The position numbers and the translations under genes were made by a program. Below are positions 10,357-28,464 of a stretch of 64,000 nucleotides of DNA, in pieces. Source of the DNA: an uncultured Gammaproteobacteria bacterium (GTDB taxonomy: Bacteria > Patescibacteriota > Microgenomatia > Levybacterales > UBA12049); NCBI GenBank assembly GCA_964521295.1, contig CAZFRF010000001.1, positions 705,016 to 769,015 of the forward strand, given 5' to 3'. The notes beneath the pieces are model-generated. The model was not told the origin of the DNA. It ran no database searches and worked only from the letters and a program-made list of their open reading frames with translations. Every line of letters begins with the position of its first letter. Position 1 is the stretch's first letter.

Positions 10357-11746
10357 TAATGGCTGGACAGCTATTATTACAATTATATCTTATATAGCTG
10401 CAGCTTGAAGCTTTATTGTTTTTTTCGCAAGTCCTTTGCTTCTCCCAGAGTTTTGCACATACGGGTTGGTCTTTGTATTTTTTAGTTCCGCACATGCATC
10501 TTGCGGTTCCCCAGTATTCAAAACTGTTGTCTTGTTGCTTGTTGGTCCAGATTGCATTTTGAATTTGTCTTTGCCATGTAACATCTCCTCTGTAGGAAAG
10601 CTTCTTCCAAGGCTGACCAGGGGGATTATTGCTGCACATTTGAAATCTTCCCCAAGTTCCTAGCGCAGCGCAGTTTCCGCTGGAATTATGATTTCCGGCA
10701 TCATGTCCATTTGGACTACCAGATTCGCAGTCTGCAAGATCAGACCAAAAGTCAACCATGGAGTCAGTAATTGGCTTATTTAAAGTATCTGCTATTACTT
10801 GCTTAAATTTTTTTTCTGTGTAGGTGCATTCAGGGTCGCCAAAATTTGCTGGTTTAAGTTGCTCTTTGAAAGGCGAAAGCTTGGTGTCTACCTCAATGAT
10901 GTTCATTATTCCACCATACTTATTGCAGGTCTTATCTGAAGGAGGGCTATCCATACCAGAGTACAGATCTCCTTCGGTGGTATCTATGTCATCGGTTGCC
11001 GTTACATCACCAAACCCACTTAACTTAAGAGAGACAGTTGTTGTTCCGTTCTTAACGCCAGGAGCAATTTTGTCAGAAATTGAGATTAAATAACTGTTGC
11101 CTGGACCCTTTTGTAGGGTACTTAGTTTCCAGCCATATCTAAATTGATTTTTAGCGCTAATTATTCCTCCAGAAGAAAGACTGTCGTATGCGGGATTTGT
11201 GCTATTTTTAGTTAAACTACTAAAGAACGCGGTGTTAATCGTGATATATACCCAGGCTTTATTTGGATCTACCTTTATTTTACTTTTATCAGCAAACACA
11301 AAGGCATACACGGTTATGTTTAAATTTCCTGTTTTGTTGTCTAGTACAGGGCAGTTCGTTCGAGAAGAGCTGCTGCAGCTAAGATATGCGTATCCACCAT
11401 TGAAGGTGAGTATTTTGGGTAGATTGGACGGAGGATTGTTTTGCGAGGATTCTGTTGTTTGTTGGGTAGTGCCTAATCCTCCTCCGCCGCCAAGTATGCT
11501 TAATAGCAGGGTGGTTACAAATAGAGCTACAAATACCCCTATTACTCCCCAAACCGCTGGAGAAAGTCCTGAGACAAGCGATTGAACGGTCTGTGCAGTA
11601 GAGTAAGCTCTTTGAGTGCTTTTAACAAATCTCCAGGCATTTCGTGCTTGTTTGGCTCTGTTGAGATTTTGTTCTAAAAACGATTTGTCATTTTGATTAG
11701 AGCCTTTATCTTCCTGAGCGTTTATTTTTATCTCATCGTCTTGCAT
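10346..11746 (-). CDS. Membrane-anchored protein with a C-terminal lysozyme-like/SLT (GH23-like) motif, a VirB1-like lytic transglycosylase candidate
   Basis: Cytoplasmic N-terminus, one TM followed by a Gly run, and a large Cys-rich ectodomain. CESGSPNGHDAGNHNSSGNCAALGTWGRFQM resembles the ES-x-NP...S-x-GA-x-GLMQ catalytic signature of SLT domains. Confidence 0.4.
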   Translation of the reverse strand: MQDDEIKINAQEDKGSNQNDKSFLEQNLNRAKQARNAWRFVKSTQRAYSTAQTVQSLVSGLSPAVWGVIGVFVALFVTTLLLSILGGGGGLGTTQQTTESSQNNPPSNLPKILTFNGGYAYLSCSSSSRTNCPVLDNKTGNLNITVYAFVFADKSKIKVDPNKAWVYITINTAFFSSLTKNSTNPAYDSLSSGGIISAKNQFRYGWKLSTLQKGPGNSYLISISDKIAPGVKNGTTTVSLKLSGFGDVTATDDIDTTEGDLYSGMDSPPSDKTCNKYGGIMNIIEVDTKLSPFKEQLKPANFGDPECTYTEKKFKQVIADTLNKPITDSMVDFWSDLADCESGSPNGHDAGNHNSSGNCAALGTWGRFQMCSNNPPGQPWKKLSYRGDVTWQRQIQNAIWTNKQQDNSFEYWGTARCMCGTKKYKDQPVCAKLWEKQRTCEKNNKASSCSYIRYNCNNSCPAISGR

Positions 11747-11748
11747 TG

Positions 11749-13530
11749 TTAAGCCTCCTTATTTTTCAGTATTTCTTGCGGGTTTGACGTAATCATTTCA
11801 TGCTCAAAAGGAGCTGCTACGATTTGTATGGCTACATGATTTTGTCCTGCGAAAAACAACCCTTCTCCAATATTGGCAGAGAGAAGTAGTTCTTTTTCAC
11901 CTTGAGTTAAGTAAAACACGTCTGAAACTAGGTCAATTTCTGATGGACTTTGCTTTAAAATCATTTGGATAGAAGAGTTAGACAAAACAGCCTTTCCATA
12001 GTCTGTGGAAAGGAAGTCCTGAACGTCCTGTGTGGCAGTAGTAAGCCCCAGGTAGTACTTTCTCGATCTTTTGGCAATAGAATACACAAATGAGGCAGAG
12101 TCTTCATATTTCATCATGTACCAGGCCTCATCTAGTATTAATAACCTTTTTTTTAGATCTTTTCTAACCTTTGTCCAAACAAAGTCTAAGATTATATGCA
12201 TCGCAATTGGCCTTAACTCCTCTTCTAGTCCGCGCAGGTTAAAAACGGTGAAGGGGTTAGAGATGTCAAAGTTTGACTGTTGGTTAAAAATCCCGGACAA
12301 AGAACCCTTGATAAATTTTTCAAGCATTAGGGCGAGTTCTTTGGCTTTTTCTTCTTCCATCCCAAGCAAGACTTTGTATAGATCCTCCATGATTGGCGGC
12401 GTCCTCTTTTGGGTGGATGGTTCAACCGTAATGCCTTTTTGCCTATATGTTTCAACAAGCGCTCTATCTAGTATTGCATCGTGGGCTGGGTCTAGTTTGC
12501 CTAGAACTATTTTTAATAATCCATGGAGACTAAGTATTTTGAGCCCCAGTTCGTTTTCGCCCTCTTCGTAGAGACCGGTTAAATCAAAGGGGTTAATTTT
12601 AATAGCCGATGAGGCATTAAAGCTAACTTGTTCTCCGCCTAGGGTCTGAGCTAATTTTTCATACTCTCCTTCGGGATCGATGATTATGACTTCTGTTCCA
12701 AAGATAAACTGGCGCATTGCTTCAAGTTTAATTAAGTAAGATTTTCCGGATCCAGATTTGCCGAGAACAACCTCGTTGGCATTTTCTAGGCTAAATCTGT
12801 CAAAGATAATTAAGGATCCGTTTTGTTGATTTATTCCATACATTATTCCTCTATCTTGAGTAAGGGTTGCAGATGTAAAAGGAAAAGTAGACGCAAGTGA
12901 GGTCGTGTCCATATTGTGGGTAATCAATAGTTTATCTGATGCAATTGGAATTGAAGACTTAAACCCATCCTCCATTTGTAACGTGGCAGTTTTGGATAAA
13001 AGGAGGAGGGAGCTAAGCGTTGAATTTAGATTTTTTGACGCTTCGTGTAGTTCCTCTAATGAATCAGATGCAAGGGATACGTATAGGCTAACCTGGAAAA
13101 ATCTTTCCATCCCTTTTGCTAATTCTTCTTGTACGCTAAGCGCGTCTTCCAACGATGCTTGAACAGTAGGGTTTGTCTCTAATCCTTCTTCCTCGTCGGA
13201 GGCAAGGGTCGCTTCCATTTCAGCAATTTTTCTTCTTAAATCAGATAAAACATCTGGCGTCGAGGAGGGGTAGATGAACATAGAGACGTTCATTGAATGA
13301 TCAAAGTTTATTAGTGGTGCAAGCCAGTTTGGATTAACATACCTTGGGTAGCCTGCTATAAACAAAGTTTTGTGAACCTTTTCTCCTACTCGAATATTGT
13401 TGAAATCAACCTCAACAGATGAAGGGGCAATAATATCTGGGATTGAGTTTGTCCCTCTTTGTAGCGCTTGGAGTCGAGGATCTGTTACGACCTGATTTGT
13501 TTCTTTATTTTGCTTTTTTTTGCCAAACAT
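11749..13530 (-). CDS. VirB4/TrbE/CagE-family T4SS ATPase (C-terminal ATPase domain)
   Basis: Walker A GKSGSGKS and Walker B LLILDEAW. The DEAW motif is characteristic of VirB4. Confidence 0.8.
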   Translation of the reverse strand: MFGKKKQNKETNQVVTDPRLQALQRGTNSIPDIIAPSSVEVDFNNIRVGEKVHKTLFIAGYPRYVNPNWLAPLINFDHSMNVSMFIYPSSTPDVLSDLRRKIAEMEATLASDEEEGLETNPTVQASLEDALSVQEELAKGMERFFQVSLYVSLASDSLEELHEASKNLNSTLSSLLLLSKTATLQMEDGFKSSIPIASDKLLITHNMDTTSLASTFPFTSATLTQDRGIMYGINQQNGSLIIFDRFSLENANEVVLGKSGSGKSYLIKLEAMRQFIFGTEVIIIDPEGEYEKLAQTLGGEQVSFNASSAIKINPFDLTGLYEEGENELGLKILSLHGLLKIVLGKLDPAHDAILDRALVETYRQKGITVEPSTQKRTPPIMEDLYKVLLGMEEEKAKELALMLEKFIKGSLSGIFNQQSNFDISNPFTVFNLRGLEEELRPIAMHIILDFVWTKVRKDLKKRLLILDEAWYMMKYEDSASFVYSIAKRSRKYYLGLTTATQDVQDFLSTDYGKAVLSNSSIQMILKQSPSEIDLVSDVFYLTQGEKELLLSANIGEGLFFAGQNHVAIQIVAAPFEHEMITSNPQEILKNKEA

Positions 13531-14183
13531 TATTTTACCTCCTTTCCTTTTACAATCGCCTTACCCTCTGTTTCATGTTTGGGGGTAAGGGACATCTCAT
13601 TGAAAATGTCATAATAGAGCTTTATTAGCTTATTTCGATCTAATATTTCCGATTTTAAGCCAATTCGTCCAAGTTGATTTCGAACGGTTTCTGCTTTAGA
13701 TCTTAAAACAGGCCCTGCTTGTTTGGAAAACTCTTCTAGAGCGCTAAGTCCAGCTACTTGCTTTGCTCCAAACACGCCTTTTTCTAAAGAAGAATAGGGA
13801 ACAACAATATAAAAGTTCTTGTCTAGTACGGAATTAACCTTAATTAGTTCTGCGACAAAATTTCTATACATCTGAATATGCTGAGAGAAGTTAGGGTTAA
13901 GTGTTTTTCTGGCCTCTTCGGTTAGCGCGTCCAGATAGCTTGAGATATTTAAAAGCTTGCTTCTTACAACTATTTGAATAGAAAAAGAAAGAGAGTTTAA
14001 CAGAGCTGAGTATGCATAGATTTTGGCATTTTGTTCTTGTTCCGATAGTAAATCGAAGTTAGTTGCTTCTACTTTTATTACCATGCAGGCGTTTCCGCCT
14101 GGAAGCACAACTACGTCATCAAATATATCTTGAATCTCAATAAATTTTTGGGTTGAGTTTGGTTTTATGCTTGCTTTGCCCAT
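13530..14183 (-). CDS. Hypothetical 217 aa soluble protein translationally coupled to VirB4. It is probably the detached N-terminal domain of VirB4.
   Basis: Its stop overlaps the VirB4 ATG (TAATG). 217 + 593 = 810 aa, the canonical VirB4 size. No TM. Confidence 0.35.
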   Translation of the reverse strand: MGKASIKPNSTQKFIEIQDIFDDVVVLPGGNACMVIKVEATNFDLLSEQEQNAKIYAYSALLNSLSFSIQIVVRSKLLNISSYLDALTEEARKTLNPNFSQHIQMYRNFVAELIKVNSVLDKNFYIVVPYSSLEKGVFGAKQVAGLSALEEFSKQAGPVLRSKAETVRNQLGRIGLKSEILDRNKLIKLYYDIFNEMSLTPKHETEGKAIVKGKEVK

Positions 14184-15361
14184 TAGTTAAAAAGAGACCT
14201 CCTTAGCTCTTCTCTTTGATCGGTAGAGATAACCTCAATAGGCATAATTACTTCTCCTTTGGTTTCAAATGCAACAGAGTCAAATCGATTTTGTCCTTTT
14301 GGATCCTCAAAACTAATGGTATATTTCCCATTGTTAAGAGCTGTGGCTGAGGCAAAATGTCCTAGGGCATTAGTTTTAAAAGCTCTTACAGCGTTTCCTT
14401 CTTCATCTTTAACCTCGACTAAAACATTAGCTAAGGGGTTTCCCCTAGGATCTTTAATGATTCCCGTAAGTAAGTTGGGGAATTCAGGGACACTTGGAAG
14501 TCCTACACTTTGGCTCATTGAATGAGGAATACTTCTTACAAATTTAGTCTCTTTTGCAGGAGCAGTCGTAGCAGTAGAAGGAGTAAAAACAGGCGAGCTT
14601 GAGCTATTCATATTTTTTTGAATCTCAATTAGTTTTTTCTCTAATTCTTCTTTTTGAGTTAGCATCTCATTCATTTGTTTTTGCAATTCCAAGACCTTTT
14701 GATGTGCGTCTAAAAGAGCTTGGGGATCAGCTTGGGCCTGTTTTTGTTCATTTACCTTTGCTTGAGCAAGCTCTTTTTCGAGTAAAGCAGCTGTTTTAAT
14801 TAATTCTTGGTTTTCTTCTGGCGCTTTAATTTTCTCTGGAGCTTGGGAAGAAGGCATTGGTTGGGCCACGGGTTGTCCTTGCCTAGCGTAGTAGTGCGAG
14901 GGAATACTGTTGGGAACGTTAATGTTGGAAGTTTGAGCTGAATATGCATTTAGATTTTGAAAAAATACAGATTCTTTTTGATCTAGTTTATTTTTTGGCT
15001 TATTTTTTATAAAGTTTTTAAACTGTTGGCTAGCTAGGGCATTTGGGTCTTCTTGTTTTGCCCATAGGCTTGCTCCCTGTTTTTGATATATATATTGAGT
15101 TGGGCTAAACACGGCTTTAAAAAAATGGGCAATCATTAAGTCTAAAGGCCGCCCAGATACTTGTAAAAAGGCAAAGCCTGCGCCAATTGCTCCAAAAGCT
15201 ATAGCTAAAGGAGCCTTGATAACAAAAGGCAAGGGCAAGATGTATGTAATCCAACCAATAATAGCCCCAGCTGCAATATAGGCAAACTGCTTTACCGTCA
15301 TGTCTCCAATTAGCTTGAATTGAAAACCTGTAATGTCTTGTGGAATAGGATGATTTTCCAT
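14183..15361 (-). CDS. Two-TM, VirB3-like membrane protein fused to a long coiled coil and a C-terminal CarboxypepD_reg-like beta-sandwich domain
   Basis: Two N-terminal TM helices lie directly upstream of VirB4, the usual VirB3 position. A Gln/Glu/Lys-rich coiled coil follows. The C-terminal region GIIKDPRGNPLANVLVEVKDEEGNAVRAFKTNALGHFASATALNNGKYTISFEDPKG matches the CarboxypepD_reg pattern. Confidence 0.4.
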   Translation of the reverse strand: MENHPIPQDITGFQFKLIGDMTVKQFAYIAAGAIIGWITYILPLPFVIKAPLAIAFGAIGAGFAFLQVSGRPLDLMIAHFFKAVFSPTQYIYQKQGASLWAKQEDPNALASQQFKNFIKNKPKNKLDQKESVFFQNLNAYSAQTSNINVPNSIPSHYYARQGQPVAQPMPSSQAPEKIKAPEENQELIKTAALLEKELAQAKVNEQKQAQADPQALLDAHQKVLELQKQMNEMLTQKEELEKKLIEIQKNMNSSSSPVFTPSTATTAPAKETKFVRSIPHSMSQSVGLPSVPEFPNLLTGIIKDPRGNPLANVLVEVKDEEGNAVRAFKTNALGHFASATALNNGKYTISFEDPKGQNRFDSVAFETKGEVIMPIEVISTDQREELRRSLFN

Positions 15362-15463
15362 AATAAATACCTCTATTTCTAGTATTTACCGTGAAAAATA
15401 TCATTTCAAGGTTATCAAAATATAACAAACCTCAAATTAAGTGGATCTACTTTTGCGTGAAAA

Positions 15464-15784
15464 CTATTTAAAGGAAAAATTATCTAAACCAGAAACTCCA
15501 GTTATGCGACCAATTAAATTGACGATAGCAAAAGAAGCAAAAATTAAAATCAGCCCAAGTAGAGAGTAGAGGAAGGTTTTTCTTGCAGAGTCAATGGATT
15601 TTGAATCTCCTCCTGAATTGATAAATTTAATTCCTGAATAAATTATCATAAATAGAGCAATAGTTCCTGCGCCAGCAAGTAGCCAATTTACAGCTAGGGC
15701 TATTAAATCAGGAATACAAGTAAGGTTGGGGATACCATGTCCTCTGCCTGCCATTTGAGTGCAAGACCAATCCATCTTAAACAT
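15464..15784 (-). CDS. VirB2/TrbC-like T4SS pilin (two-TM hairpin), paralog 1
   Basis: 106 aa. A hydrophobic helix, then the loop YSGIKFINSGGDSKSIDSARKTF, then a second helix. The same architecture is seen in the three neighbours. Confidence 0.5.
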   Translation of the reverse strand: MFKMDWSCTQMAGRGHGIPNLTCIPDLIALAVNWLLAGAGTIALFMIIYSGIKFINSGGDSKSIDSARKTFLYSLLGLILIFASFAIVNLIGRITGVSGLDNFSFK

Positions 15785-15828
15785 AATAAATATACAATAT
15801 CATTCCTAAGTAGTTTTAACAATAGATT

Positions 15829-16251
15829 TTAACGGCCGATTGATGGAAGGACAAAGAAGTTTGCTGTTTGTCCAGGAATAAAGAATCCAAGTAAGATATT
15901 CAATATAAAGTAGGATAAGAATATTATGACTAAGCCAATTACGGCTGCAATAATATGCTCTCTCGCTGCTCCAACTGCAGATTTGTCTCCACCTGAGGTT
16001 AACCATTTAAATCCACCCCAGATTAGGTAGAAAAGAGCAACAATTATTGAGATAACAAAGATAAAAGAAATGATTGCTGGAATAGCATTACTAACGGAGA
16101 ATCCACATAAAGGATTAAATTGCCCAGCTGGGCAAAGCTCAACTCTGGTTGCTCCTGCTGGAACAGTTGGGGTAGGGGTAGCCGCCATTGCTACGTTAGC
16201 TAATAATAAATATGCTGGCGTTAGGACTGAGGTAGATAATAATTTTTTCAT
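15829..16251 (-). CDS. VirB2-like T4SS pilin with signal peptide, paralog 2
   Basis: Signal peptide ending AMA, a Cys pair in the N-terminal segment, and the core LYLIWGGFKWLTSGGDKSAVGAAREHII between two TM helices. Confidence 0.5.
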   Translation of the reverse strand: MKKLLSTSVLTPAYLLLANVAMAATPTPTVPAGATRVELCPAGQFNPLCGFSVSNAIPAIISFIFVISIIVALFYLIWGGFKWLTSGGDKSAVGAAREHIIAAVIGLVIIFLSYFILNILLGFFIPGQTANFFVLPSIGR

Positions 16252-16294
16252 GTATATATTTAGACTAAACAGTTTTTAAATAATTGTCAAGAGT

Positions 16295-16810
16295 CTATTT
16301 ACAGCTATATGCAATAGCTCCGCCGGTAACGTTAGATGCTTGACATGTTTGTCCTGCGTTACAGCATTTTGGTCCACAAGCAAACTTTGACCCTGTACAT
16401 GTTGCACCGCTTGTTGTGCTATTCGTTATTGAGGGTATGGTAAAGTTGCTCAAACTAAAGCCTGGGATAAAGAAGTTTATTACAATATTTAGGATTAAAT
16501 AAGATAAAAAGATAACAATAAGGCCAATGATTGATGCAATAATATGCTCTCTCGCTGCTCCAACTGCAGATTTGTCTCCACCTGAGGTTAACCATTTAAA
16601 TCCTCCCCAGATTAAATAAAGCAGGGCAACAATTGTTGAGAGAACGAAGATAAAGTTTATAAAACTAGCTATAAGTTTCGCAGGGTCTCCCGCTGCATTA
16701 CAGATTACACCAAAGCTTCCAGTTGGGCATAATGTGCTAGCTGCAAAAACAGGAGAGGTTAATCCAAAAAAGCTGAAGGAAAAGATAAGGCCTGTGAGTA
16801 GTTTTTTCAC
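16295..16810 (-). CDS. VirB2-like T4SS pilin with signal peptide and a C-terminal Cys-rich extension, paralog 3
   Basis: Its core is identical to paralog 2. The 16541-16610 nt stretch is nearly identical to 15951-16020. It adds a tail with 7 Cys. Confidence 0.5.
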   Translation of the reverse strand: MKKLLTGLIFSFSFFGLTSPVFAASTLCPTGSFGVICNAAGDPAKLIASFINFIFVLSTIVALLYLIWGGFKWLTSGGDKSAVGAAREHIIASIIGLIVIFLSYLILNIVINFFIPGFSLSNFTIPSITNSTTSGATCTGSKFACGPKCCNAGQTCQASNVTGGAIAYSCK

Positions 16811-16851
16811 CTTAAATAAATCTTAGGCACAATTTACTGGTTTGTCAAGTC

Positions 16852-17199
16852 CTAGGGTAGTTTTAGTAAGTTTACCCCAAAATAGACGCCTAAAATATTT
16901 AGTATAAAGTAGGAAATAAAAACAATTACTAATCCTACAATCGTAAATCCGATTCTTTGTCTTGCCTGTTGAACTTTTTGCTTGTCTCCAGCGGAGGTCA
17001 TCCATTGCCAGCCTGAGTAAATTAATATTATTAATCCAAAAACAATAGCAAAGAGCGTGATAAATGCAAGGCCTGTTTTAATTGCCTTAATTAAAGTATC
17101 AAGTCCTCCCGTCGGCATACCACTTACACTTTGAACCTTTATTGGTTGCTTATCTGGGCCCATTATTGAGAGCGCAATTAGTTTCATGTTATTTTCCAA
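16852..17199 (-). CDS. VirB2-like T4SS pilin, paralog 4
   Basis: Core motif IYSGWQWMTSAGDKQKVQQARQRI flanked by two TM helices. Confidence 0.45.
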   Translation of the reverse strand: MENNMKLIALSIMGPDKQPIKVQSVSGMPTGGLDTLIKAIKTGLAFITLFAIVFGLIILIYSGWQWMTSAGDKQKVQQARQRIGFTIVGLVIVFISYFILNILGVYFGVNLLKLP

Positions 17200-18379
17200 A
17201 TCCAGGCAATCTTAGTATGTCATATCCAATAGTTTGTAATATCACTAAGGAAAAGATTGTAAAAAGAAGACCGATAATGGCAGCGGTTAGTTGGTCTTTC
17301 GCTCCTTGTATTTTTTCAGGATTTCCCTGCGAAACCATGAGTCTGTAGCCTGAAAAAATAATTAAAATAGTGGCAATTCCGCCAATGACGCCAAATAAAA
17401 TTCCCATTAAAGTTTTTATAAACTCTCCAGGTCCACCTGTAAAGTTTATTTTTATGCCTAGGCCTGTTTGTATTTGGCAATTCTTATTTTTTACCTGATC
17501 TTCGCTACAAATGGGGGTAGGCGTGTTGTATCTGTATTTTGGACTTTCAAATGTAATTGCGGATTTAACAACAGAGCACTTTTCCTGTCTATCGTTAGCG
17601 CATCTGCATTCGTAGTTGCTGCATACGCTGGTGGATTTTCCGCAGGTACCGGAGGTTATGCATCCTTTTAGACATTTTCCTGATATGCAGGCATCTCCTA
17701 ATGATCCTCCCGTTTGGCAGTAGTAGCCAGAAGCGCAATTTCCTCTAGGCTTAGAGTTGCCTGCTCCGTTTTGACTGCACATGTTGTAGTCTTCGGAGTC
17801 TGGAGTGATCCTGCAATCTTGATTATTTCCTTGTCCATCTCCTGGGGGAGGCTTGGGCTCCGAGCCATCTGAATTATTAATAGTTAGGCTGCTTTTGCAG
17901 ATAGCAAATCCTTCGTCATCGCAGGTTGCTGGAGACGTGTTTTGTCCAAATACAGCATTGCAGAGCTTAAGAGTGTATTTGCCGCTTTTAAGAGTGTTAA
18001 TGTCTTGTAGGGTGTCTGTACGGAAAACCAAAGGCTCCCCAGATTGCTTGTCTTCCACCCACGTTGCACATCCTAAGCCAAACTGATCTGACAGGTTGGG
18101 GTTTGGAGTGCAAAACTCCCCGGTAGCATCCCCAATGATAACTGCGAAGTACTGGTTTCCATTAGAATCATTATCCGAAATATTGTTAAAAGTAAGCTCT
18201 TTAACAGATCCTGGATTTATTTTGGAGTTTTTAGTATTAGGGTTAAAAGAAAAAGAGCATTCGCTTATTGCAAGAGCCTGATCTTTTAAAACAAAGAATA
18301 GGCAAGAAACAAAAAAGAATAATAAAAAAATTTTTCTTAACACCTTTTTATCGTAACGCAACAATGAGGTAAATTTCAA
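17189..18379 (-). CDS. Large secreted Cys-rich protein with a C-terminal VirB2-like pilin module, a putative pilus-associated adhesin or minor pilin
   Basis: Signal peptide, then about 300 aa with more than 30 Cys. The C-terminal 75 aa (IFSGYRLMVSQGNPEKIQGAKDQLTAAIIGLLFTIFSLVIL) repeat the pilin hairpin architecture. Confidence 0.45.
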   Translation of the reverse strand: MKFTSLLRYDKKVLRKIFLLFFFVSCLFFVLKDQALAISECSFSFNPNTKNSKINPGSVKELTFNNISDNDSNGNQYFAVIIGDATGEFCTPNPNLSDQFGLGCATWVEDKQSGEPLVFRTDTLQDINTLKSGKYTLKLCNAVFGQNTSPATCDDEGFAICKSSLTINNSDGSEPKPPPGDGQGNNQDCRITPDSEDYNMCSQNGAGNSKPRGNCASGYYCQTGGSLGDACISGKCLKGCITSGTCGKSTSVCSNYECRCANDRQEKCSVVKSAITFESPKYRYNTPTPICSEDQVKNKNCQIQTGLGIKINFTGGPGEFIKTLMGILFGVIGGIATILIIFSGYRLMVSQGNPEKIQGAKDQLTAAIIGLLFTIFSLVILQTIGYDILRLPGFGK

Positions 18380-18380
18380 G

Positions 18381-19739
18381 TTAACTTGTGAATCTGAATC
18401 CCCTGCCTTTGATTGTTTGGATTAGTTTAGGCTCATTTGGATTATCTTCAATTTTTTTTCTAAGTCGGAAGATTAATTGATCTACGGCTTGATCTGTGAC
18501 TCCTAAAACTGTTTTTTGATCTCCCCAAACAGCGCTAATTACGTCTTCTTTTGTGACAAGAGTGTCTTTTTGGGTAATTAGGAATTTTAGTAATTTATAT
18601 TCTAAACTGGTTAGGAGTTCAGAAATGATGGTCTCGCCTTTTAATATTTCTCCTCTTTCATTTAAATTAATTTTGGTAAGTTCTGGGGGAATAGATTTAT
18701 CTTTAATATAATCAGCAAGTAGAGAAATGGTTAATAAATTATTTTTAACCAATCCTACGCTTTCTAGGTATTCAGCATTGTCTATTTTCCCTTTCATGAT
18801 CATAATTTGCTCTGATGGAGAGAGAAAGTTCCAGATTGCAAACAATGCACTTCTTATTGGTTTTTGTTCAATTAAATATTTTCTAAGTTCTAGTTTATTT
18901 TTAAAATTTTGTCCAGAGGAGAGGAGGGTCTCTGCGGAAAGGCGCATTAGATTACTGTGTCCTCCTGTTAGCTCGAAAACATTTTCTCTAAGTTCCTGAT
19001 CTATTTTTTTACCTGTAATTTTTTCTAAATATTCTAATCTAAAATTAATTCCAATTTCATTATAAATAGGTAGGTAAATAATTTTTCCGGCAACAAAATC
19101 ATAAAAATCTGCAAATAAAGTGGGTTCTAGAATTTCTTCGAGTGGACGGTTTAAGCTAAAAACTGCAGAAAACTTATACTTAGCTCTATTTCTGAGAATT
19201 CTTAAATTTGCAAAAAATTCGCTATCTAATACGCTGATATAATCTTCAAACCTATCAAAAAGCAAAACAATTGTTAGTCCCTTTTCTAGGGCTAAATAAT
19301 CTATTGCCTTTTTTAATCCAGCAAAGATAACTAAATCATCCTTAATCTGCATAGACTCCTTAAAAATTTTATTAATTTCTTCATAATCTTTTTGCATTTG
19401 CCTTTCTCTTAGCGAATCGATAATTCCTAGAAATATAAATTTAGTTGTTTCAGCAAGGGGCTTTTTGCGAATTTCAGAAAAATTTAAATAGACAAAATGG
19501 AAAAGCTTGTTGTCTTCATCCAAATGTTTTACGCGAACATTTTTGTTGTAGGACAAAAGTCCTAAAATATTAGATCTCCCAACTCCAGGAAGGGAAACAA
19601 TTTGACAAGAATTCCCTTCTTTTATGTAGTTTAGTATTTTTTCTATTTCTTGATCTCTTGTTCCATCTGGATAGAGGGCTTCAAAGTGTTGATCCATAAG
19701 TTTATTGTAATTTTTTTGTAAGGCAAATATCAAGCTCAA
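18381..19739 (-). CDS. Transcriptional regulator with an N-terminal ATPase-like domain and a C-terminal OmpR/PhoB-type winged helix
   Basis: C-terminus ...VWGDQKTVLGVTDQAVDQLIFRLRKKIE...IQTIKGRGFRF is the Trans_reg_C signature. A degenerate P-loop-like SLPGVGRSN lies near the N-terminus. Confidence 0.5.
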   Translation of the reverse strand: MSLIFALQKNYNKLMDQHFEALYPDGTRDQEIEKILNYIKEGNSCQIVSLPGVGRSNILGLLSYNKNVRVKHLDEDNKLFHFVYLNFSEIRKKPLAETTKFIFLGIIDSLRERQMQKDYEEINKIFKESMQIKDDLVIFAGLKKAIDYLALEKGLTIVLLFDRFEDYISVLDSEFFANLRILRNRAKYKFSAVFSLNRPLEEILEPTLFADFYDFVAGKIIYLPIYNEIGINFRLEYLEKITGKKIDQELRENVFELTGGHSNLMRLSAETLLSSGQNFKNKLELRKYLIEQKPIRSALFAIWNFLSPSEQIMIMKGKIDNAEYLESVGLVKNNLLTISLLADYIKDKSIPPELTKINLNERGEILKGETIISELLTSLEYKLLKFLITQKDTLVTKEDVISAVWGDQKTVLGVTDQAVDQLIFRLRKKIEDNPNEPKLIQTIKGRGFRFTS

Positions 19740-19769
19740 AAGGCATTTTAGGCTTAAACTGCAAGTGTT

Positions 19770-22700
19770 ATGAGAGTAGAGATATATAGAAGATTAAATC
19801 AAGCTAATCCAGAATTGACAATAGGCTCAGTTAAACCTAAACTGGAATCAGGAGATATTTTTATGGCAAAAGTAGATGGTGGTGGAGAGCAGCCAGGTCA
19901 AATTCCAGAGAAAAAAATAACACAAGAAATTGTTCCTCCTCAGGGTAGAGTTGGAAGGGCAAGGCGGGCATTGAGTTCTCGAGCAGAGCCTCCTCGAATT
20001 GCCCATGCATTGCTGGATGATCCATCAGAGCCAATTGTGCCCCCCGTCGCTCCCTTGTCTAGTCCAGATATTCCCGTAATTCCCGACGAAGCTCCAGGGG
20101 TTCCAGAGCATGGAGCCCCTATCCCAGCAGCTCCCGAAGAGGGATCTATTCCAGAGCAAATAAGGTTAGCTTGGGAATCGGCAGTACCAATTTCTGATCA
20201 AGCATCTGAGACCGAAAGAAAAGTAAGAGATGTAATTATAGAGGCGGCAGTGCTAAGAGGGTTTAGTCCCGTGGATCAAGCGGAGACTGTCAGAAGATTA
20301 AAAAGTTATTTAAGAACTAAGCAGACAGGAAGAGAGGCGGGTTTTGATGAGATTCCAGAAAATGAAGAGAGAATAACTAAAGAAGTACTTAAGGAAATAA
20401 TCAAAGTTATGACGAGTGGATTTAGCTTTACCGAAGAGGAGCTCGATGCTTACTCCGGTATGATAGAAAGTCTTGATACTAATGCCCCTGATTATGTAGA
20501 GAGAGCAAAAAAAATAATTCAAGTAATCCATTCTAAGCAAGAAGAATACGCAATTGATGAAGATACTAATTTGAACGAGGAGCAGGGAGAGGAAGGTTTT
20601 TATGAAGAGTCTGCAGAGGGACGATCTCAAATTGAGGGTGAAGAGCGGGTCTCACTTTTCGATGGTGTTTATAGAGCTCTGGATGCGTTAGAGGATGCTC
20701 CAGATGATGCAACGAGAGAGAGTATGGAGAGAGGAATACGCAGGGCTTTAGCTACGGACTTAACGGTTAATGGCGCATTAATTGAATCTTCTGCAGTCAG
20801 GCCCGGGGAAGGTGTAAGGTTAAGGAATGGAAGATGGGTTCATCCAGAAGATTACGAAAGATATAGGGCAACTTGGGCAAGTATAACAGCAGATCCGAAC
20901 CTTGATTCTATGCGCGCAAGGGCAAAGAAATTTATTAATGAACTAGAATTCAAGCTAGACGAGAGGGGTCGAGAGGTTGCCGGAGACAGAATTCAAAACG
21001 TTCAAGATCTTGCAAAATTTATTGTTACAAAACAAAATGCTGAAATATATGGAGTAGGTAAGAGGTTTGAGCTTGTAGATTCTGAAGGAAATTTTCATCC
21101 AGAAAACTTTTTAATTTGGCTTAGGGAACAATCAATTGCAATTCATAACGATAACAAGAATGATCAGCTTAGTCCATTGACATCTGTAGTTATTGAAACC
21201 ACATTCAGAACCATTTCTATTTATATGATGACACGTTTTAGAGAGCAGTATTTTAGAGATAAAAAAAGCGGCGAGGTTATGCATGATCTCGCAAATAGGG
21301 TTCTGATGGAGGCTTTTATGTTTGGAGTTTTCAGAAATTCAGATATTGCATATAGGTCAGTTATGGGTGAGGACAAAAGATTACCTGAGGCTTTGCCGCA
21401 AATTCATTCCAGAAATGATTTGACCAGTTCAGACAATTGGCAATATATGCTAAATGCTCCAGCTGAATTTGGCACTGAACATGATATGCGAGTTGGCGAA
21501 GCTGTAATGTTTTGTAACGATTTTTATTACAACATTTCAGATAAAGAGGAATTAATTAAGCTATTGGGCGACCGCCCGATTACAAGGCAAGATTTTGAAG
21601 ATGCTTTATTGCTACTTAGCGGTAAACATGAATGGGAACGAGACCAAATTAAATTTGATGCTCATTTTGATCCTGAGGATCCAAATGGACCTTTTTATCT
21701 AAACGATGATAAACAAAGAGTTTATTTCTTTATGGACTCTAATGGACAAATGCAAGACACTGTAAATATTGATGCTTTTATTGATGGGTTAAATACCTTC
21801 AATATGGCAACGCCTAAGACTAGCACGGTAAATTTATTAAGGGAAATTGTAAGAGTTAAAGCGGCTCAGAAGTATGGGTTAAACGATGGAATAGCTAGGG
21901 GAGAAAAAGCAGAAGAGAAAAAAAGACAGTATGACGAGGCAGTTGCGCGTCATAAAGTCATTCTGAGAAGAATTACTCGAGATGGTCAAGAACTGAGTCA
22001 AGCTGAAATTGATAGAAGAGCAAAAGATAGGGCAAACTCAGAATTTAAAAAGGAACAGAGCGCAGACAGAACAAATCTTGAATATGCTGAAACAACCTCT
22101 TGGATTTTTCAAAGACCCTATGGAATTGCAGCTAGAAACGATACTTTACGAAGGGGCTTTGATGCAGCGACGAAATTATATTTATATGACTATATTCTTA
22201 GGCAATCAAAAGAAGGAACTGGTGGTCCGATAGGTATTCCAGAAATGATGGGAATCTTTAGGCTTTTGAGCCCAGATCTAGTAGAGGGTTTACTTACTGA
22301 GTCAGGGGTTAGTCCAAGACAGTTAATGCTTCAAATTAGAGAGGTAGATTTGATGCCAGGAGGTACCCCAGAGCAAGAAGCTGAGAAAGCTAAGAAAAAA
22401 GCAGAAATATTGTCACATTTAAGATTTGCTGAAAGAGCTGAGATGGATTTCACATCAAACCAGCAATCTAGAGGATTTCAAATATACCATTCCTTCACGG
22501 AAGGAGATGATCTTGATTTACACGATGTTATAACCCATAGCTTCTGGGAAGGAATAAAAGTAAAACTGAGTAAGGCCGAAGAGGTTGTAAAAGATAAATG
22601 GATGAAGCCTGTGAGATATTTGCTTTCTTCAAATAATGCTTTGAATTTTGCTGCAAAAGCAAGAATGCTAGATTTTGTTAAAACGGGTAAATTAAAGCCT

Positions 22701-23303
22701 GCAGCAGCTCCAGAGGCTATTGTTCAAGAAAGAAATGCTTTAAATCAGCAAAGAGTGAAGGAAGGTAAGGCTACATTGCCACAGGTGGCAATGCCCAAGC
22801 CTGCTCCTATATATTCTACGGTTACTCTTGCTGAAAAAATGCTGAGTCCGGATGTTACAGACAGGGATTATATATCAGATGACGGTAAGGTAATAAAGAT
22901 TAGGGAGGCTTTAATGGACCCGGCAAAATATGAGCAAAATAGAGCCAATGTTAGAAAGGCATTAGCAAAAAATGCCATTACAACAAGAATAGCATTCGTT
23001 TTGAAATTTCATAGAGAATTGTATGGATTAGGAGAAAGATGGGGCTATGAAAGAGTTCAGGCGCTTTACCATTATCTTCACAGAATAAGAGAATGGGAGC
23101 CAGTTGAGGGTAAGCCAGGTCGGGTAAAGGAAAATCCCGAAAAGGGTTTTTTCTCTCACCATGATCTAGAATGGATGAGAGGGCTTAGTAATACTAAAGA
23201 GTATAATATGATCATGGAAGAGCTTGGTAAGCAAGGTGGCGTAGCAGCTCTTGGCGCAGGAAAAGATGCATTGTCAGCGTTTATACAAGCTATATTAAAA
23301 TAA
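19770..23303 (+). CDS. Large (1177 aa) acidic hydrophilic protein with a proline-rich N-terminal region and no TM or recognisable catalytic motif. Hypothetical, possibly a T4SS substrate.
   Basis: Long uninterrupted ORF. PxxP-rich tract near residues 60-130. No Walker motifs and no His-triad relaxase motif were seen. Local GC is above the window average. Confidence 0.4.
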   Translation: MRVEIYRRLNQANPELTIGSVKPKLESGDIFMAKVDGGGEQPGQIPEKKITQEIVPPQGRVGRARRALSSRAEPPRIAHALLDDPSEPIVPPVAPLSSPDIPVIPDEAPGVPEHGAPIPAAPEEGSIPEQIRLAWESAVPISDQASETERKVRDVIIEAAVLRGFSPVDQAETVRRLKSYLRTKQTGREAGFDEIPENEERITKEVLKEIIKVMTSGFSFTEEELDAYSGMIESLDTNAPDYVERAKKIIQVIHSKQEEYAIDEDTNLNEEQGEEGFYEESAEGRSQIEGEERVSLFDGVYRALDALEDAPDDATRESMERGIRRALATDLTVNGALIESSAVRPGEGVRLRNGRWVHPEDYERYRATWASITADPNLDSMRARAKKFINELEFKLDERGREVAGDRIQNVQDLAKFIVTKQNAEIYGVGKRFELVDSEGNFHPENFLIWLREQSIAIHNDNKNDQLSPLTSVVIETTFRTISIYMMTRFREQYFRDKKSGEVMHDLANRVLMEAFMFGVFRNSDIAYRSVMGEDKRLPEALPQIHSRNDLTSSDNWQYMLNAPAEFGTEHDMRVGEAVMFCNDFYYNISDKEELIKLLGDRPITRQDFEDALLLLSGKHEWERDQIKFDAHFDPEDPNGPFYLNDDKQRVYFFMDSNGQMQDTVNIDAFIDGLNTFNMATPKTSTVNLLREIVRVKAAQKYGLNDGIARGEKAEEKKRQYDEAVARHKVILRRITRDGQELSQAEIDRRAKDRANSEFKKEQSADRTNLEYAETTSWIFQRPYGIAARNDTLRRGFDAATKLYLYDYILRQSKEGTGGPIGIPEMMGIFRLLSPDLVEGLLTESGVSPRQLMLQIREVDLMPGGTPEQEAEKAKKKAEILSHLRFAERAEMDFTSNQQSRGFQIYHSFTEGDDLDLHDVITHSFWEGIKVKLSKAEEVVKDKWMKPVRYLLSSNNALNFAAKARMLDFVKTGKLKPAAAPEAIVQERNALNQQRVKEGKATLPQVAMPKPAPIYSTVTLAEKMLSPDVTDRDYISDDGKVIKIREALMDPAKYEQNRANVRKALAKNAITTRIAFVLKFHRELYGLGERWGYERVQALYHYLHRIREWEPVEGKPGRVKENPEKGFFSHHDLEWMRGLSNTKEYNMIMEELGKQGGVAALGAGKDALSAFIQAILK

Positions 23304-23308: not shown

Positions 23309-25150
23309 TTATGAATGAGGCGGTGGTGGAGGAGTTCCTCCAGTATTTCCGGGATTTTGTGGATTATTATCTTCGTCTTGAGCATTATCTATGCCTAGTT
23401 TAGTTCTTATCTGTTTTCTTCTTCGATTTGCCGCATCGTCAACTCTTTCCCTAAACTGTCCAAAGCGAAGACCCACTCTGCTTTCAGCAAATTTATTAGA
23501 AATAACTGCTCTACCAATCTTTGCTTCTCCTCTTCTATTTTCGCCAAAGATTTCATGATTTATTCTTCTAATAGGAGCGGCAATTATTCCAGTTGCAGGG
23601 CCTAGTGCTCCTCCTAAGCCAAAGCCAGTCTTGGGAGCCTTAATTGCAGATTTAATCATCTTAGCTGCTTCAGGAGTCATGAAGAGTAGCCCGAGGCTTG
23701 TAATTGCTCCTAAAAATCCTGGCGCAAGACTATTGCCTAATAAGGGTGGGGTAAATGAACCATTTGGAGCAGCGTTGCTTGGGCCCGCGGACATAGCTGC
23801 TCCAATTACGTTTGCGAGCAGAATCATTCCATATACTGTTGGAAATACTGCTAAATTAGCAACTACGTCTTTTAGCCATGGGCCAAAGCCTAAAGATGAA
23901 TTTCCTGGAATTAAGGCTCCGATTATCCAAATTGGAGCAAAGACTACGTCAAGTAAAAGAGAAACATAAGAACGAAGTAGCATCAGTAGGATTCTAAAGA
24001 GTGTAATTAAGACACCTACGATAACAATGAGCCATATTATTAAGAATGGCAAAATATCTGTAAAAAAGAAATGAATTCCTAAAAATGCTCCAGTTGATTC
24101 TATTGCTGTTTGTCCTGTGCAAAGAAGTCCCCCTACAAATGGGACTCCTGATCCTGCGCAGGGTATTAGTGAGGAAAATTTGAGAGCTCCATATATGCTT
24201 GCAACGTTATACAACATGTCAACAACGCTAAAATTAATCCAGTCCCCGACTCCAAAATTAAAAGCTTTTCCTATCATGTCCATGATACTTCCTGCTCCAC
24301 CAGTAAGTCCGGAATGAGAGCTTGGTCCGATCAGTATTGCATTGAGGCTATCTTTTCCGGCAACGGCAATATTGTTAACTATTCCAAAGATATTTAAATT
24401 ACCAGCAGCATTAAGAATCGTTTGCCCTTCGATGCTAGCTGGAGAAAGGCTTGTATTTAATCCTGGAAGTCCTGAGAAAAGACTATAGATTAAATACATA
24501 GAGAAAAACATTAAATCAATCAAAAGGCCAACTATTGCAAACGAAAAGGTGATAAGAATGAGTGCAATTATTATTTTAGGAATTTGATTTTGAATTCCCA
24601 TGACTGTTCGGGGATCAATCCTTGCTCTTAACATGATTCCTACGCCAATTAATATAAAAGCAATAACAAAAATAAGATAAGTTAAATTTCTAAAAATTGT
24701 CCAAATATTAATAAGCGGAGATAGGGCTTTAAAGCCTATTCCTTGCGCATAGCTTGGCTTCGCAACTCCAAAGCTTTGAGTTGCATAGGAGATAAAATCT
24801 GAAGTATGTACTGGAGGAGTAAATAGCATTCCGATTCCTTGAATGGTCAATCCCAATGCTCCTCCGCCTTTTTCCGTATAGCCAATTTTATTTGTTTTTG
24901 GATTGATACCCAAACACCCTTGTTTTGGATTAATAGGATCGATTCCTGATAGTTGACATATAAATGCTGACATGGTTTCGATTAGGGCACTTTGTGTATA
25001 GTTATGAAGATTTTTAGATACATTCGCATCTGTATCTGGGGCTAAATAATTGTTTGACTGAGTTGTCTCTTGCGCAAATGAAGGCTTTAAAAAGCTAAAA
25101 ATTAAGACAAATGCAAAAAAAACTGCAAGGATTCGAGCAGGAAATTTCAT
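23309..25150 (-). CDS. Polytopic membrane protein, VirB6/TrbL-like T4SS channel component candidate
   Basis: Signal peptide, at least 8 TM helices, a Gly-rich periplasmic loop and a hydrophilic proline-rich C-terminal tail (TPPPPPHS). This is the architecture of the TrbL/VirB6 family. Confidence 0.4.
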   Translation of the reverse strand: MKFPARILAVFFAFVLIFSFLKPSFAQETTQSNNYLAPDTDANVSKNLHNYTQSALIETMSAFICQLSGIDPINPKQGCLGINPKTNKIGYTEKGGGALGLTIQGIGMLFTPPVHTSDFISYATQSFGVAKPSYAQGIGFKALSPLINIWTIFRNLTYLIFVIAFILIGVGIMLRARIDPRTVMGIQNQIPKIIIALILITFSFAIVGLLIDLMFFSMYLIYSLFSGLPGLNTSLSPASIEGQTILNAAGNLNIFGIVNNIAVAGKDSLNAILIGPSSHSGLTGGAGSIMDMIGKAFNFGVGDWINFSVVDMLYNVASIYGALKFSSLIPCAGSGVPFVGGLLCTGQTAIESTGAFLGIHFFFTDILPFLIIWLIVIVGVLITLFRILLMLLRSYVSLLLDVVFAPIWIIGALIPGNSSLGFGPWLKDVVANLAVFPTVYGMILLANVIGAAMSAGPSNAAPNGSFTPPLLGNSLAPGFLGAITSLGLLFMTPEAAKMIKSAIKAPKTGFGLGGALGPATGIIAAPIRRINHEIFGENRRGEAKIGRAVISNKFAESRVGLRFGQFRERVDDAANRRRKQIRTKLGIDNAQDEDNNPQNPGNTGGTPPPPPHS

Positions 25151-25228: not shown

Positions 25229-25301
25229 GTGCCCGTAGTTCAACGGATAGAACACCTGGTTGCGGTCCAGGCGGTTGGAGGTTCAATTCCTCTCGGGCAT
25301 A
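25229..25301 (+). tRNA. tRNA-Arg, anticodon GCG
   Basis: Hand-folded cloverleaf: acceptor GTGCCCG/CGGGCAT, D stem GTTC/GAAC, anticodon stem CCTGG/CCAGG, loop TTGCGGT, T arm GGAGG-TTCAATT-CCTCT. Confidence 0.6.
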
Positions 25302-25302
25302 C

Positions 25303-25386
25303 GGAGGGTTCGCATAGTGGCCAATTGCACGAGTTTCGAAAACTCGAGGACTTAGTCCTCCGCAGGTTCGAATCCTGCACCCTCCG
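25303..25386 (+). tRNA. tRNA-Ser, anticodon CGA (class II, long variable arm)
   Basis: Acceptor GGAGGGT/ACCCTCC, anticodon stem-loop CGAGT-TTCGAAA-ACTCG, T arm GCAGG-TTCGAAT-CCTGC, discriminator G. Confidence 0.65.
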
Positions 25387-25395
25387 CTTTTACTT

Positions 25396-25833: not shown

Positions 25834-25851
25834 TGTTATAATACTTCTCGT

Positions 25852-25941: not shown

Positions 25942-25942
25942 A

Positions 25943-28460: not shown

Positions 28461-28464
28461 AGTT

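Follow-up and report, generated by a model that had tools for sequence, protein, structure and literature searches.

The stretch of DNA considered here (the window) comprises 64,000 nucleotides (nt) of contig CAZFRF010000001.1 of the assembly GCA_964521295.1, from a bacterium of the Microgenomatia, and its largest open reading frame (ORF), at positions 19770-23303 of the forward strand, lies among type IV secretion system (T4SS) genes. This ORF starts with ATG, its coordinates include the stop codon, and it encodes 1177 amino acids (aa); an earlier note on this DNA had picked it out as the largest of the window, which it is, the next ones encoding 810 and 790 aa. The analysis described below establishes that the 1177-aa protein is an integral genetic part of a chromosomal, origin-proximal, monoderm-type T4SS locus of Microgenomatia, and the protein is best explained as the founding, unannotated member of a lineage-specific family of Microgenomatia-type bacteria of the Candidate Phyla Radiation (CPR).

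The genes of the locus follow one another as an array of pilin genes, a regulator that joins a nucleoside triphosphatase (NTPase) region to a winged helix-turn-helix, the 1177-aa ORF and, convergent with it, the gene for a polytopic membrane protein of ~600 aa. This order recurs in the related loci L001, L002, L003 (Ca. Levybacteria), L006/L007, L008, L010, L015, L018 and L020, and it extends to metagenomic loci in which VirB4 is only 61-83% identical, so that, wherever a related locus was informative (at least 11 independent cases), the same slot is taken by a gene of similar size. In L006, which with L007 represents a distant member of the family (E=3e-14), the slot keeps its synteny with T4SS genes although the genes for VirB4 and PrgI are found at another place. 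The polytopic protein has homologs convergent with the slot gene and adjacent to it in 9/9 loci with enough sequence (phmmer, 7e-51 to 1e-108), which places the 1177-aa gene inside the T4SS locus. When metagenomes were scanned for loci more closely related to that of the window, regulator identity nowhere exceeded 68%. The earlier note had rightly assigned the ORF to the secretion system, and the comparison of gene order that it advised was carried out, the order being held in Levybacteria genomes and metagenomic loci alike, but its placement at the edge of the locus has to be given up, because the polytopic gene beyond the ORF is equally linked to the T4SS genes. The cumulative GC skew reaches its minimum at ~6-7 kb, where it coincides with dnaA (6581-7939) and dnaN (7964-9169), with yidC upstream, and the T4SS locus is thus immediately origin-proximal. 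Such a location is reported for many Patescibacteria in a survey of their T4SSs (PMC12102498).

The encoded protein (~130 kDa) is hydrophilic, with a grand average of hydropathy (GRAVY) of -0.61, and its highest Kyte-Doolittle value over 19 residues is only 1.35, so that it has no transmembrane (TM) segment; neither a signal peptide nor a hydrophobic N-terminus was found. Scans with regular expressions revealed no Walker A, HUH/His-triad, HExxH or LPxTG motif in it. On these points (a hydrophilic, TM-free protein with neither P-loop nor relaxase His-triad) the earlier description holds, while two of its adjectives need qualification: the protein is acidic, if only mildly so (isoelectric point 5.4), and it is proline-rich in its first ~200 aa (25 Pro) and not as a whole (5% Pro). 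There is a single Cys. The Pro-rich tract covers aa 90-125, with seven PxxP motifs within aa 85-122 (20022-20135), and its DNA is, as had been remarked, richer in GC than the window (61% against 35.8%). A foreign origin, which this richness might suggest, was rejected, since GC at third codon positions is flat along the ORF (0.23-0.34) and the composition of the tract is therefore due to its Pro, Ala, Gly and Glu codons.

Searches of Pfam, NCBIfam, PHROGs, PADLOC and PDB sequences with the 1177-aa protein returned no match, whereas its neighbours match T4SS_pilin, PrgI, P-loop_TraG and TrsD in the same searches. The family surfaced only in an exhaustive HMMER search, which gave 191 cluster representatives at E<=1e-3 (129 of them at <=1e-10), all of them unannotated and, among those listed, mostly of 800-1650 aa; a word-indexed search, whether with the single sequence or with a 47-sequence profile, found the protein itself and one relative of 1353 aa. 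Homology is restricted to query residues ~360-1177, beginning at about aa 360-410. The relatives from reference genomes belong to Candidatus Levybacteria (Microgenomatia, CPR), and public records label family members 'hypothetical protein' (e.g., OGH10758.1, from Ca. Levybacteria). No family match emerged from a tblastn search of 72,556 plasmids and 50,697 phages, and no informative fused domain from a Pfam scan of six family members of 1565-1651 aa; matches of the 47-sequence profile to TBP, SNF5 and Mediator among PDB sequences were discarded as low-complexity noise. The searched parts of three papers on the T4SS of Patescibacteria are without mention of the family (PMC10633639, PMC11665869, PMC12102498).

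Comparison with established classes of proteins leads to the same picture. Neither sequence nor profile homology connects the protein with the canonical T4SS components (VirB1-B11, VirD4, PrgA-L, TrsD, TraG) in Pfam, NCBIfam or PDB, and it bears no likeness to a solved T4SS subunit. It has no HUH or His-triad, Walker A/B or polymerase motif and no profile match to relaxases, helicases or polymerases; it lacks the signal peptide, the LPxTG motif and any Pfam adhesin domain of the PrgB-type surface adhesins of Gram-positive bacteria; and nothing in PADLOC, PHROG, the plasmid and phage records or the BFVD folds relates it to anti-phage defence or phage proteins. In every respect that could be tested, then, the protein falls outside the known T4SS components, relaxases, adhesins, defence and phage proteins and also, as discussed further on, outside the polymorphic toxins. 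The earlier note had called it novel and devoid of a recognisable domain, and so it appears from the want of any Pfam, PDB or Foldseek relative and of any annotation in its family; a match to a housekeeping helicase or polymerase, which the note had named as the finding that would overturn its view, was looked for in vain.

The AlphaFold2 model built from the 47-sequence alignment, with a predicted local distance difference test (pLDDT) score of 77 and a predicted template modelling (pTM) score of 0.70, divides the protein into a disordered N-terminal region, a variable helical region, a conserved family core and a C-terminal tail (Table 1). The core, of ~750 aa, is predicted to be predominantly alpha-helical with a few hairpins, and a separate model of the domain at aa 760-1177 reaches a pLDDT of 91.6 and a pTM of 0.86. 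Confident models were thus obtained by the structure prediction that had been recommended, together with remote homology searches, as a check, and no relative with them: Foldseek found no match at E<=1e-3 in PDB or BFVD, its sole neighbours, non-significant, being ARM/HEAT-like solenoids. Six residues (W450, R452, G576, D791, G822 and K946) are invariant in the 47 sequences, which share 20-39% identity, and ~20 more are near-invariant, including N446, R522, Y528, D591, R782, D798, K802, R949, Y950, R965 and H1081; together they indicate that a function has been retained. The C-terminal module is conserved as well, and consists of FFSxxDIxWIRKxSxT, a Gly-rich linker and an amphipathic aromatic helix ending in [FILMVY][KR], a terminal pair present in 83/134 members against 29/134 controls. 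Family-wide, the mean hydrophobic moment of the tail is 0.546, compared with 0.413 for internal controls (p=8e-32), and Gly accounts for 16% of the last 25 aa, compared with 6.9% of the whole protein. In three family members, and in the slot protein of L018, the C-terminal helix is hydrophobic enough to be TM-like.

Not every slot protein is recognisable along its whole length. The slot ORF of L015, of L018 (and of the related fragment L012) and of L020 has 935-1101 aa from stop to stop, and its product matches the family profile over the N-terminal leader and linker only. These loci nevertheless retain the position and size of the gene, its 5' architecture and an N-terminus with M[AP][ED]G, and L015 and L020 have a similar amphipathic tail. 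The fuller motif M-[AP]-[ED]-G-x-[GS]-G after the second ATG (ATG2) occurs across the family and in these alternative proteins, so that M[AP][ED]G and the Gly-rich/amphipathic C-terminus are kept even where the body is unrecognisable. Pfam gave nothing for the alternative proteins except one sub-threshold match of 30 residues, and, as far as their sequences tell, the choice lies between orthologs that divergence has made unrecognisable and replacements that are not orthologous. An additional ORF of 360 aa is found in L015 (8816-9895, minus strand), where it lies between regulator and slot gene, and replaces the first promoter element (P1, described below); its C-terminal segment is strongly amphipathic, with a hydrophobic moment of 0.75.

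The rate at which the protein changes sets it apart from its surroundings. Between the window and L001, VirB4 is 98% identical, PrgI 96%, the TrsD-like protein 94% and the regulator 90%, while the 1177-aa protein is 76% identical over aa 1-106, unalignable over aa 107-407, 42% identical over aa 408-602 and 32% over aa 599-1177. A second pair of loci, L008 and L010, repeats the pattern, with flanking genes at 78-91%, the polytopic protein at 66% and the slot protein at 28% over 313 aa. The abrupt fall from 90-98% to ~32% was at first attributed to replacement of a cassette by recombination, an explanation since withdrawn: the four-fold degenerate sites of the flanking genes differ at 46% (Jukes-Cantor distance 0.71), and a simulated gene free of all constraint would retain about 25% identity, so that near-neutral divergence in situ is sufficient and recombination is not required. 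By this comparison the body of the protein evolves near the neutral rate, except at the fixed core positions (~20 of them polar), and the rate could result from diversifying selection or from weak constraint. To a lesser degree, fast change is also seen elsewhere in the locus: in the polytopic protein, whose gene ranks second in rate there, in a single pilin paralog and in the N-terminal portion of a second one, all of them presumably envelope- or host-facing elements. Pilin identities between the window and L001 range accordingly, from 99% (pil140), 94% (pil106) and 83% (pil115) to 55% (pil171), and only the C-terminal 160 aa of a 396-aa pilin-domain protein align.

The 5' end of the gene carries two promoter-like units, P1 and P2, whose conservation was evaluated in the window and in L002-L006, L008, L010, L012, L015, L018 and L020. 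P1 takes the form ATCAAG-N20-TAnnnT-N4..10-ATG1 in 11/12 loci. P2 has the consensus TTGAC[AT], 17/18 nt, TAnnnT, ~6 nt, (A)GGAG, ~8 nt, ATG, and the distance from TTGAC[AT] to ATG2 is fixed at 48 nt (45 in one locus) in 11/12, L020 having a degenerate TTGCAA. The whole composite of P1 and P2 is matched in 10/12 loci and the remaining two retain one half; an independent scan ranked P2 as the best promoter-like site of the region, with a score of 10/12. ATG1 and ATG2 are in frame, with no stop between them, in every locus examined, and P2 is accordingly read through as peptide: the motif 'LT-x(5-24)-M[APS][ED]' appears near the N-terminus of 90/137 full-length members, as opposed to 2-3/137 controls, and within every locus it is unique to the slot gene. 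A role of this peptide ('LT...G.IFM[AP][ED]') as a secretion signal or Prp-like cleavage site was rejected as the main explanation, given that it is encoded by TTGACA...TAnnnT...GGAG...ATG at fixed spacing and with a rare Leu codon; TTG makes up only 13% of Leu codons, and its use in the P2 context means that the constraint acts on the DNA. The 'conserved N-terminal peptide' is hence a predicted sigma-70 promoter and Shine-Dalgarno sequence read in frame, serving Met32. A second start at Met32 (19863) is likely, several family members being annotated from exactly the equivalent residue (MPEG.., MAEG.., MDEN..), and ATG1, with its -10 box so near, fits a leaderless start. The gene would then probably give a leaderless long form from P1 and a short form, led by the Shine-Dalgarno sequence, from P2.

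The regulator, transcribed in the opposite direction, shares this region. On the minus strand positions 19733-19728 read TTGATA, the -35 element of a regulator promoter (TTGATA-18-TACAAT) that scores 10/12 and ends 6 nt before the regulator ATG; it overlaps the ATCAAG box, which thereby doubles as a regulator element and makes the control region compact and bidirectional, with 72-165 bp between the regulator start (19697) and the starts of the slot gene up to 19863. The longest-ORF start of the regulator, 19739, is probably 14 codons too long, so that the 30 bp formerly given as the distance between the two genes apply to longest-ORF coordinates and not to the more probable start at 19697; the divergent orientation was correctly described. 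Exact TTGACA-N16-18-TAnnnT sites number 7, about 3 being expected, and promoters of this form end 9-10 nt before the starts of dnaA, two pilin genes and the ORF at 57291. With -10 boxes lying close before all of these and before the regulator, leaderless initiation appears to be common in this organism.

Table 1. Positions of the features of the T4SS locus, of the 1177-aa ORF and its control region, and of related elements in the window.
Feature	Position	Strand	Basis or remarks
T4SS gene block	9601..18379	-	Pfam, NCBIfam; order conserved in L001, L002, L008
VirB4 (P-loop_TraG)	11749-13530	-	Pfam/NCBIfam
TrsD/VirB4-N-like, 217 aa	13530-14183	-	Pfam/NCBIfam
PrgI/VirB3-like with Ig-like domain	14183-15361	-	Pfam/NCBIfam
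Five T4SS_pilin paralogs	15464-18379	-	Pfam/NCBIfam; pilin annotation of orthologous L001 genes
Divergent regulator	18381..19697	-	Trans_reg_C 5e-19 at aa 376-450; probable start, from L001 ortholog
P1 region	19729..19760	+	ATCAAG box 19729-19734, 20-nt spacer, -10 TAAACT 19755-19760, 9 nt to ATG1
P2 and ribosome-binding site	19815..19865	+	-35 TTGACA 19815-19820, 17 nt, -10 TAAACT 19838-19843
Shine-Dalgarno and ATG2	AGGAG 19850-19854, 8 nt, ATG2 19863-19865	+	P2 unit
Long form (1177 aa), predicted	19770..23303	+	ATG1, 9 nt after -10 TAAACT
Short form (1146 aa), predicted	19863..23303	+	ATG2 (Met32), preceded by consensus promoter and Shine-Dalgarno
N-terminal disordered region (to aa 124), with Pro/acidic PxxP tract	19863..20141	+	pLDDT <50, residues 1-124
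Variable helical region (aa 129-404), lineage-specific	20154..20981	+	Medium pLDDT; unalignable to closest relative
Conserved family core (aa 405-1157)	20982..23240	+	Block-mean pLDDT >90 over most
C-terminal tail, Gly-rich linker and amphipathic helix ending ILK	23241..23300	+	Low pLDDT, residues 1159-1177
Convergent polytopic membrane protein, 613 aa, VirB6-like candidate	23309..25150	-	Topology and position
VirD4-type coupling protein homolog, 790 aa	51687..54059	+	TrwB_AAD_bind 8e-10, TraG-D_C, DUF87
Leaderless-type promoter sites	6542-6581, 16251-16290, 16810-16848, 57253-57291, 19697-19733 (regulator)		

The regulator combines an N-terminal P-loop-like NTPase region (~370 aa, LPGVGRSN, no Pfam match) with a C-terminal winged helix of the OmpR/PhoB type; it has no receiver domain, that is, it is not a two-component response regulator, and its synteny with the pilin array extends to all loci. 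On the other side, 5 bp separate the stop of the ORF from the polytopic gene, whose product has a signal peptide, an N-terminal exported domain with two conserved Cys, multiple TM helices and a C-terminal tail that is Pro-rich and of low complexity. Neither Pfam, NCBIfam nor PDB gave a match to it, and its profile was also without a PDB sequence match. The convergence that the earlier note described is real, and the label VirB6-like that it attached to this neighbour is retained as a candidate identity based on topology and position, homology not having been detected. The T4SS block also includes orf466 and orf251, of no known identity, and a homolog of the VirD4-type coupling protein (T4CP) lies 28 kb away, unlinked to the locus and followed by tRNA-Ile(UAU). 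In the block, the TrsD/VirB4-N-like ORF shares one base with the start of VirB4, which amounts to a split VirB4, and the PrgI/VirB3-like protein is fused to an Ig-like domain of the CarboxypepD_reg/SdrD-B type.

In these respects the locus matches the T4SS of the mating-pair formation class FATA (MPF-FATA-like) described for Patescibacteria in PMC12102498, a system that has VirB4, TrsD-like and PrgI/VirB3 proteins as well as arrays of VirB2-like pilins, that lies close to dnaA/dnaN, and that lacks a nearby relaxase and has its T4CP encoded elsewhere. The searched passages of that survey mention no large soluble protein in the T4SS locus and describe VirB6 as 'scarce' in Microgenomatia; by those passages, the 1177-aa family and its polytopic partner are unreported components of T4SS loci (PMC12102498).

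Elsewhere the window holds six tRNA genes at 25229-28653, of which five are tRNA-Ser, including an adjacent pair with the anticodons ACU (28465-28552, unusual) and GCU (28568-28653), and a transfer-messenger RNA at 29942-30306 (minus strand). A SpoIID-domain protein (34131-35867) lies near two tandem class A penicillin-binding proteins (37589-42154, minus strand; Transgly and Transpeptidase domains, 764 and 736 aa). A ribonucleotide reductase with a TSCPD domain (46667-49099) is encoded upstream of an AdoCbl-II riboswitch (49651-49720, plus strand; 41 bits, the gathering threshold being 36.5), which sits just upstream of a 433-aa ORF (49783-51084) with no Pfam match.

As to function, the earlier note had thought of a secreted effector or substrate or of a surface or scaffold protein, roles among which the sequence evidence points in more than one direction. 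The reading that we tentatively put first, without holding it to be probable outright, is that the 1177-aa protein is a T4SS-dependent, host-facing exported substrate or translocator. Since it has neither a signal peptide nor a TM segment, any export must depend on the T4SS. The protein would be made in the cytoplasm, and its terminal segments, disordered or amphipathic, would bring it to the T4SS, possibly by way of the unlinked VirD4-like ATPase or of the VirB6-like neighbour; after export it would act at or in the envelope of the host cell as the dedicated substrate or translocator of the system, its quickly changing surface following host-specific targets and its invariant residues performing a conserved activity or binding. 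Such an exported, host-facing role is favoured by the near-neutral rate of evolution, by the disorder of the termini and by a promoter of the gene's own. Residues 1-124 and 1159-1177 are, in the model, candidates for terminal segments of the kind used by secretion signals, and the M[AP][ED]G motif and the C-terminal tail remain conserved where the body does not. As would be the case for a T4SS substrate, the protein lacks a Sec/Tat signal and its gene is linked to a T4SS (11 independent loci or more); the consensus TTGACA-17-TAAACT and AGGAG constitute independent and, by prediction, strong expression signals; and a coupling protein homolog is present in the window. In the literature, the T4SS of Patescibacteria is described as essential, devoid of a relaxase, such that it 'may instead export proteins', and of 'completely unknown' role, and in the only genetically tractable member of the group it is essential for epibiotic growth (PMC10633639, PMC11665869, PMC12102498). 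A cultured parasite of the Microgenomatia is host-specific and shows T4SS-like tubes at the site of contact with its host (bioRxiv 10.64898/2026.06.21.733656).

A functional analogy may be drawn with a well-known exported protein. CagA, the dedicated substrate of the cag T4SS of Helicobacter pylori, is a soluble protein of ~130 kDa that has no Sec signal and is encoded in the T4SS cluster; it has a unique helical fold and a long disordered region, and it is strongly polymorphic between strains. In size, solubility, location, helical and disordered build and variability the 1177-aa protein resembles it, with no similarity in sequence or fold (PDB sequences, Foldseek). CagA, furthermore, targets eukaryotic cells, belongs to one species and relies on a C-terminal signal and the chaperone CagF, whereas the family described here, the export of which is a proposal, stays in its position throughout a class-level lineage of bacterial epibionts.

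A number of points weigh against export. Effectors are usually scattered and variably present, a fixed slot being typical of a machine component, and a position kept across class-level diversity is in this sense more typical of a component than of an effector; the universal place beside the VirB6-like gene and the C-terminal helix of membrane-targeting type favour a machine-associated role. The helix resembles the membrane-targeting sequence of MinD/FtsA-type proteins, is TM-like in a few homologs and would equally fit tethering to the cell's own membrane. The search for a C-terminal secretion signal that the earlier note had advised yielded the conserved Gly-rich/amphipathic tail and nothing of the canonical, positively charged T4SS signal, and no XVIPCD, BID or other translocation-signal domain is found among the Pfam matches. 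To pass through a channel, a helical core of 750 aa as well packed as the model predicts would need unfolding. The gene for the T4CP lies outside the T4SS locus, and the T4CP homolog of Saccharibacteria is reported as dispensable (PMC12102498). Finally, relaxed constraint and positive selection are indistinguishable at a synonymous divergence of ~0.7, and secretion of the protein is itself inferred from sequence.

A more detailed form of the export proposal, which we regard as unlikely taken as a whole, would have the slot gene encode a cargo or translocator that leaves through the pilus-bearing, monoderm-type T4SS and is inserted into or through the host envelope by its amphipathic or TM-like C-terminal helix; the near-neutral surface would set the host range, the invariant R/D/K/H cluster would open or maintain a conduit for host macromolecules, and the slot proteins of L015, L018 and L020 would be the same module diverged beyond detection. 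If this were true, few known essential components of secretion systems would evolve as fast as the slot protein.

The strongest alternative, doubtful in our estimation and yet the one most in keeping with the fixed position, is that the protein stays in the cytoplasm, tethered to the membrane, and serves the T4SS as an adaptor or scaffold, in the manner of an 'extended VirB6' whose hydrophilic domain has become detached. By its C-terminal helix it would dock on the membrane's inner face, beside the VirB6-like protein, and would organise, gate or regulate the channel or handle imported host material. MinD/FtsA-type tails consist of a flexible linker and an amphipathic helix at the extreme C-terminus, and the 1177-aa protein likewise ends in a flexible linker and a helix of ~14 residues, a resemblance in sequence pattern; the same helix could equally be a secretion or docking signal or an element for insertion into the host membrane. 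The statistical strength of the Gly-linker and amphipathic helix, the TM-like versions in L018 and three members, universal presence, the convergent gap of <=5 bp to the VirB6-like gene, the lack of a signal peptide and the ARM/HEAT-like character of the non-significant Foldseek neighbours are all as this proposal would have it. The C-terminal domain of TraG in F/SXT systems is a hydrophilic, helical and variable module of a VirB6-type protein that determines specificity, and the 1177-aa protein offers a possible analogue of it, a large hydrophilic helical module in the company of a VirB6-type polytopic protein. Another comes from Southlakia epibionticum, in which, according to PMC10633639, two essential VirB6-like proteins, SEML1_0011 (~998 aa) and SEML1_0013 (~1088 aa; both lengths inferred from genes of 2997 and 3267 nt), carry large C-terminal helical 'ARM repeat' domains and are encoded in an origin-proximal Saccharibacteria T4SS cluster with a pilin array; the polytopic protein of the window has only ~600 aa. 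The module of the window is, however, a separate polypeptide from a convergent gene, which is therefore not co-transcribed with its neighbour, and the VirB6 identity of that neighbour is a candidate one. A Rosetta-stone search of ~150 representatives found none fused to a membrane domain, none with a polytopic region and none matching the profile of the polytopic protein, and near-neutral divergence would be unusual for an internal subunit whose presumed partners are 94-98% conserved.

Between the export proposal and the remaining explanations there is less to weigh, these being less likely than either export or an adaptor. It is improbable that the gene is a passenger unrelated to the T4SS, encoding a weakly constrained protein in an origin-proximal variable spot, for example a cytoskeletal or attachment-organelle protein, or decaying. 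Divergence near the neutral expectation, the acidic, Pro-rich, low-complexity N-terminus and the want of functional annotation of any kind would agree with it; an intact ORF of 3.5 kb has nonetheless been kept in genomes of ~0.9 Mb, and the 191 cluster representatives, the invariant polar residues, the confidently predicted fold, the elaborate promoter region and a synteny with T4SS genes that is strict even in L006 are not what a passenger would show. The attachment-organelle variant brings to mind HMW1, HMW3 and P65 of Mycoplasma, large cytoplasmic proteins of the terminal organelle with acidic, Pro-rich domains, in host-attached organisms with reduced genomes. The likeness lies in the acidic, Pro-rich, low-complexity region within a large protein; there is no Pfam homology, and the 1177-aa protein is dominated by a folded, conserved core and linked to a T4SS.

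It is known that T4SSs can deliver toxins to bacteria, as with the effectors called X-Tfe in Xanthomonas, and a polymorphic toxin-like effector, with a conserved leader or trafficking end and a diversifying toxic body that kills or permeabilises the host bacterium, would account for the T4SS linkage, for the parasitic habit of cultured relatives and for the combination, in one slot, of a conserved 5' leader and N-terminal motif with a divergent or unrecognisable body. We consider it quite improbable nevertheless, because the conserved positions are spread over all 750 aa of the core instead of being limited to a trafficking domain at the N-terminus, neither a toxin domain nor an XVIPCD-like C-terminal domain was recognised (Pfam), and no small immunity gene is conserved next to or downstream of the slot gene, whose neighbours are the regulator and the polytopic protein, the extra 360-aa ORF being present in L015 only. 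An unannotated housekeeping enzyme of nucleic acids (a helicase, a polymerase subunit or a relaxase) has a negligible probability, for its size, its place near dnaA/dnaN at the origin and its conserved Arg, Lys, Asp and His residues are set against the absence of any Walker A, HUH or other nucleotide-enzyme motif, of a Pfam, NCBIfam or PDB match even with the 47-sequence profile, of a fold match for the confident models and of a plasmid or phage match, and against a near-neutral evolution unlike that of housekeeping enzymes.

The findings bear on the biology of these organisms in several ways. The N-terminal motif that proved to be encoded by a predicted promoter calls for caution in the motif-based discovery of secretion signals and in the annotation of start codons in leaderless-rich organisms, and the 'missing' VirB6 of Microgenomatia has a candidate in the ~600-aa polytopic neighbour. 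Above all, few machines are conserved across Patescibacteria, and the T4SS, which is among them, has no known substrate or function. The 1177-aa protein, large, soluble, always in the locus, endowed with a strong control region of its own and a new fold, and evolving faster than the rest of the machine, is a concrete candidate for what the Patescibacteria T4SS exports or contacts the host with.

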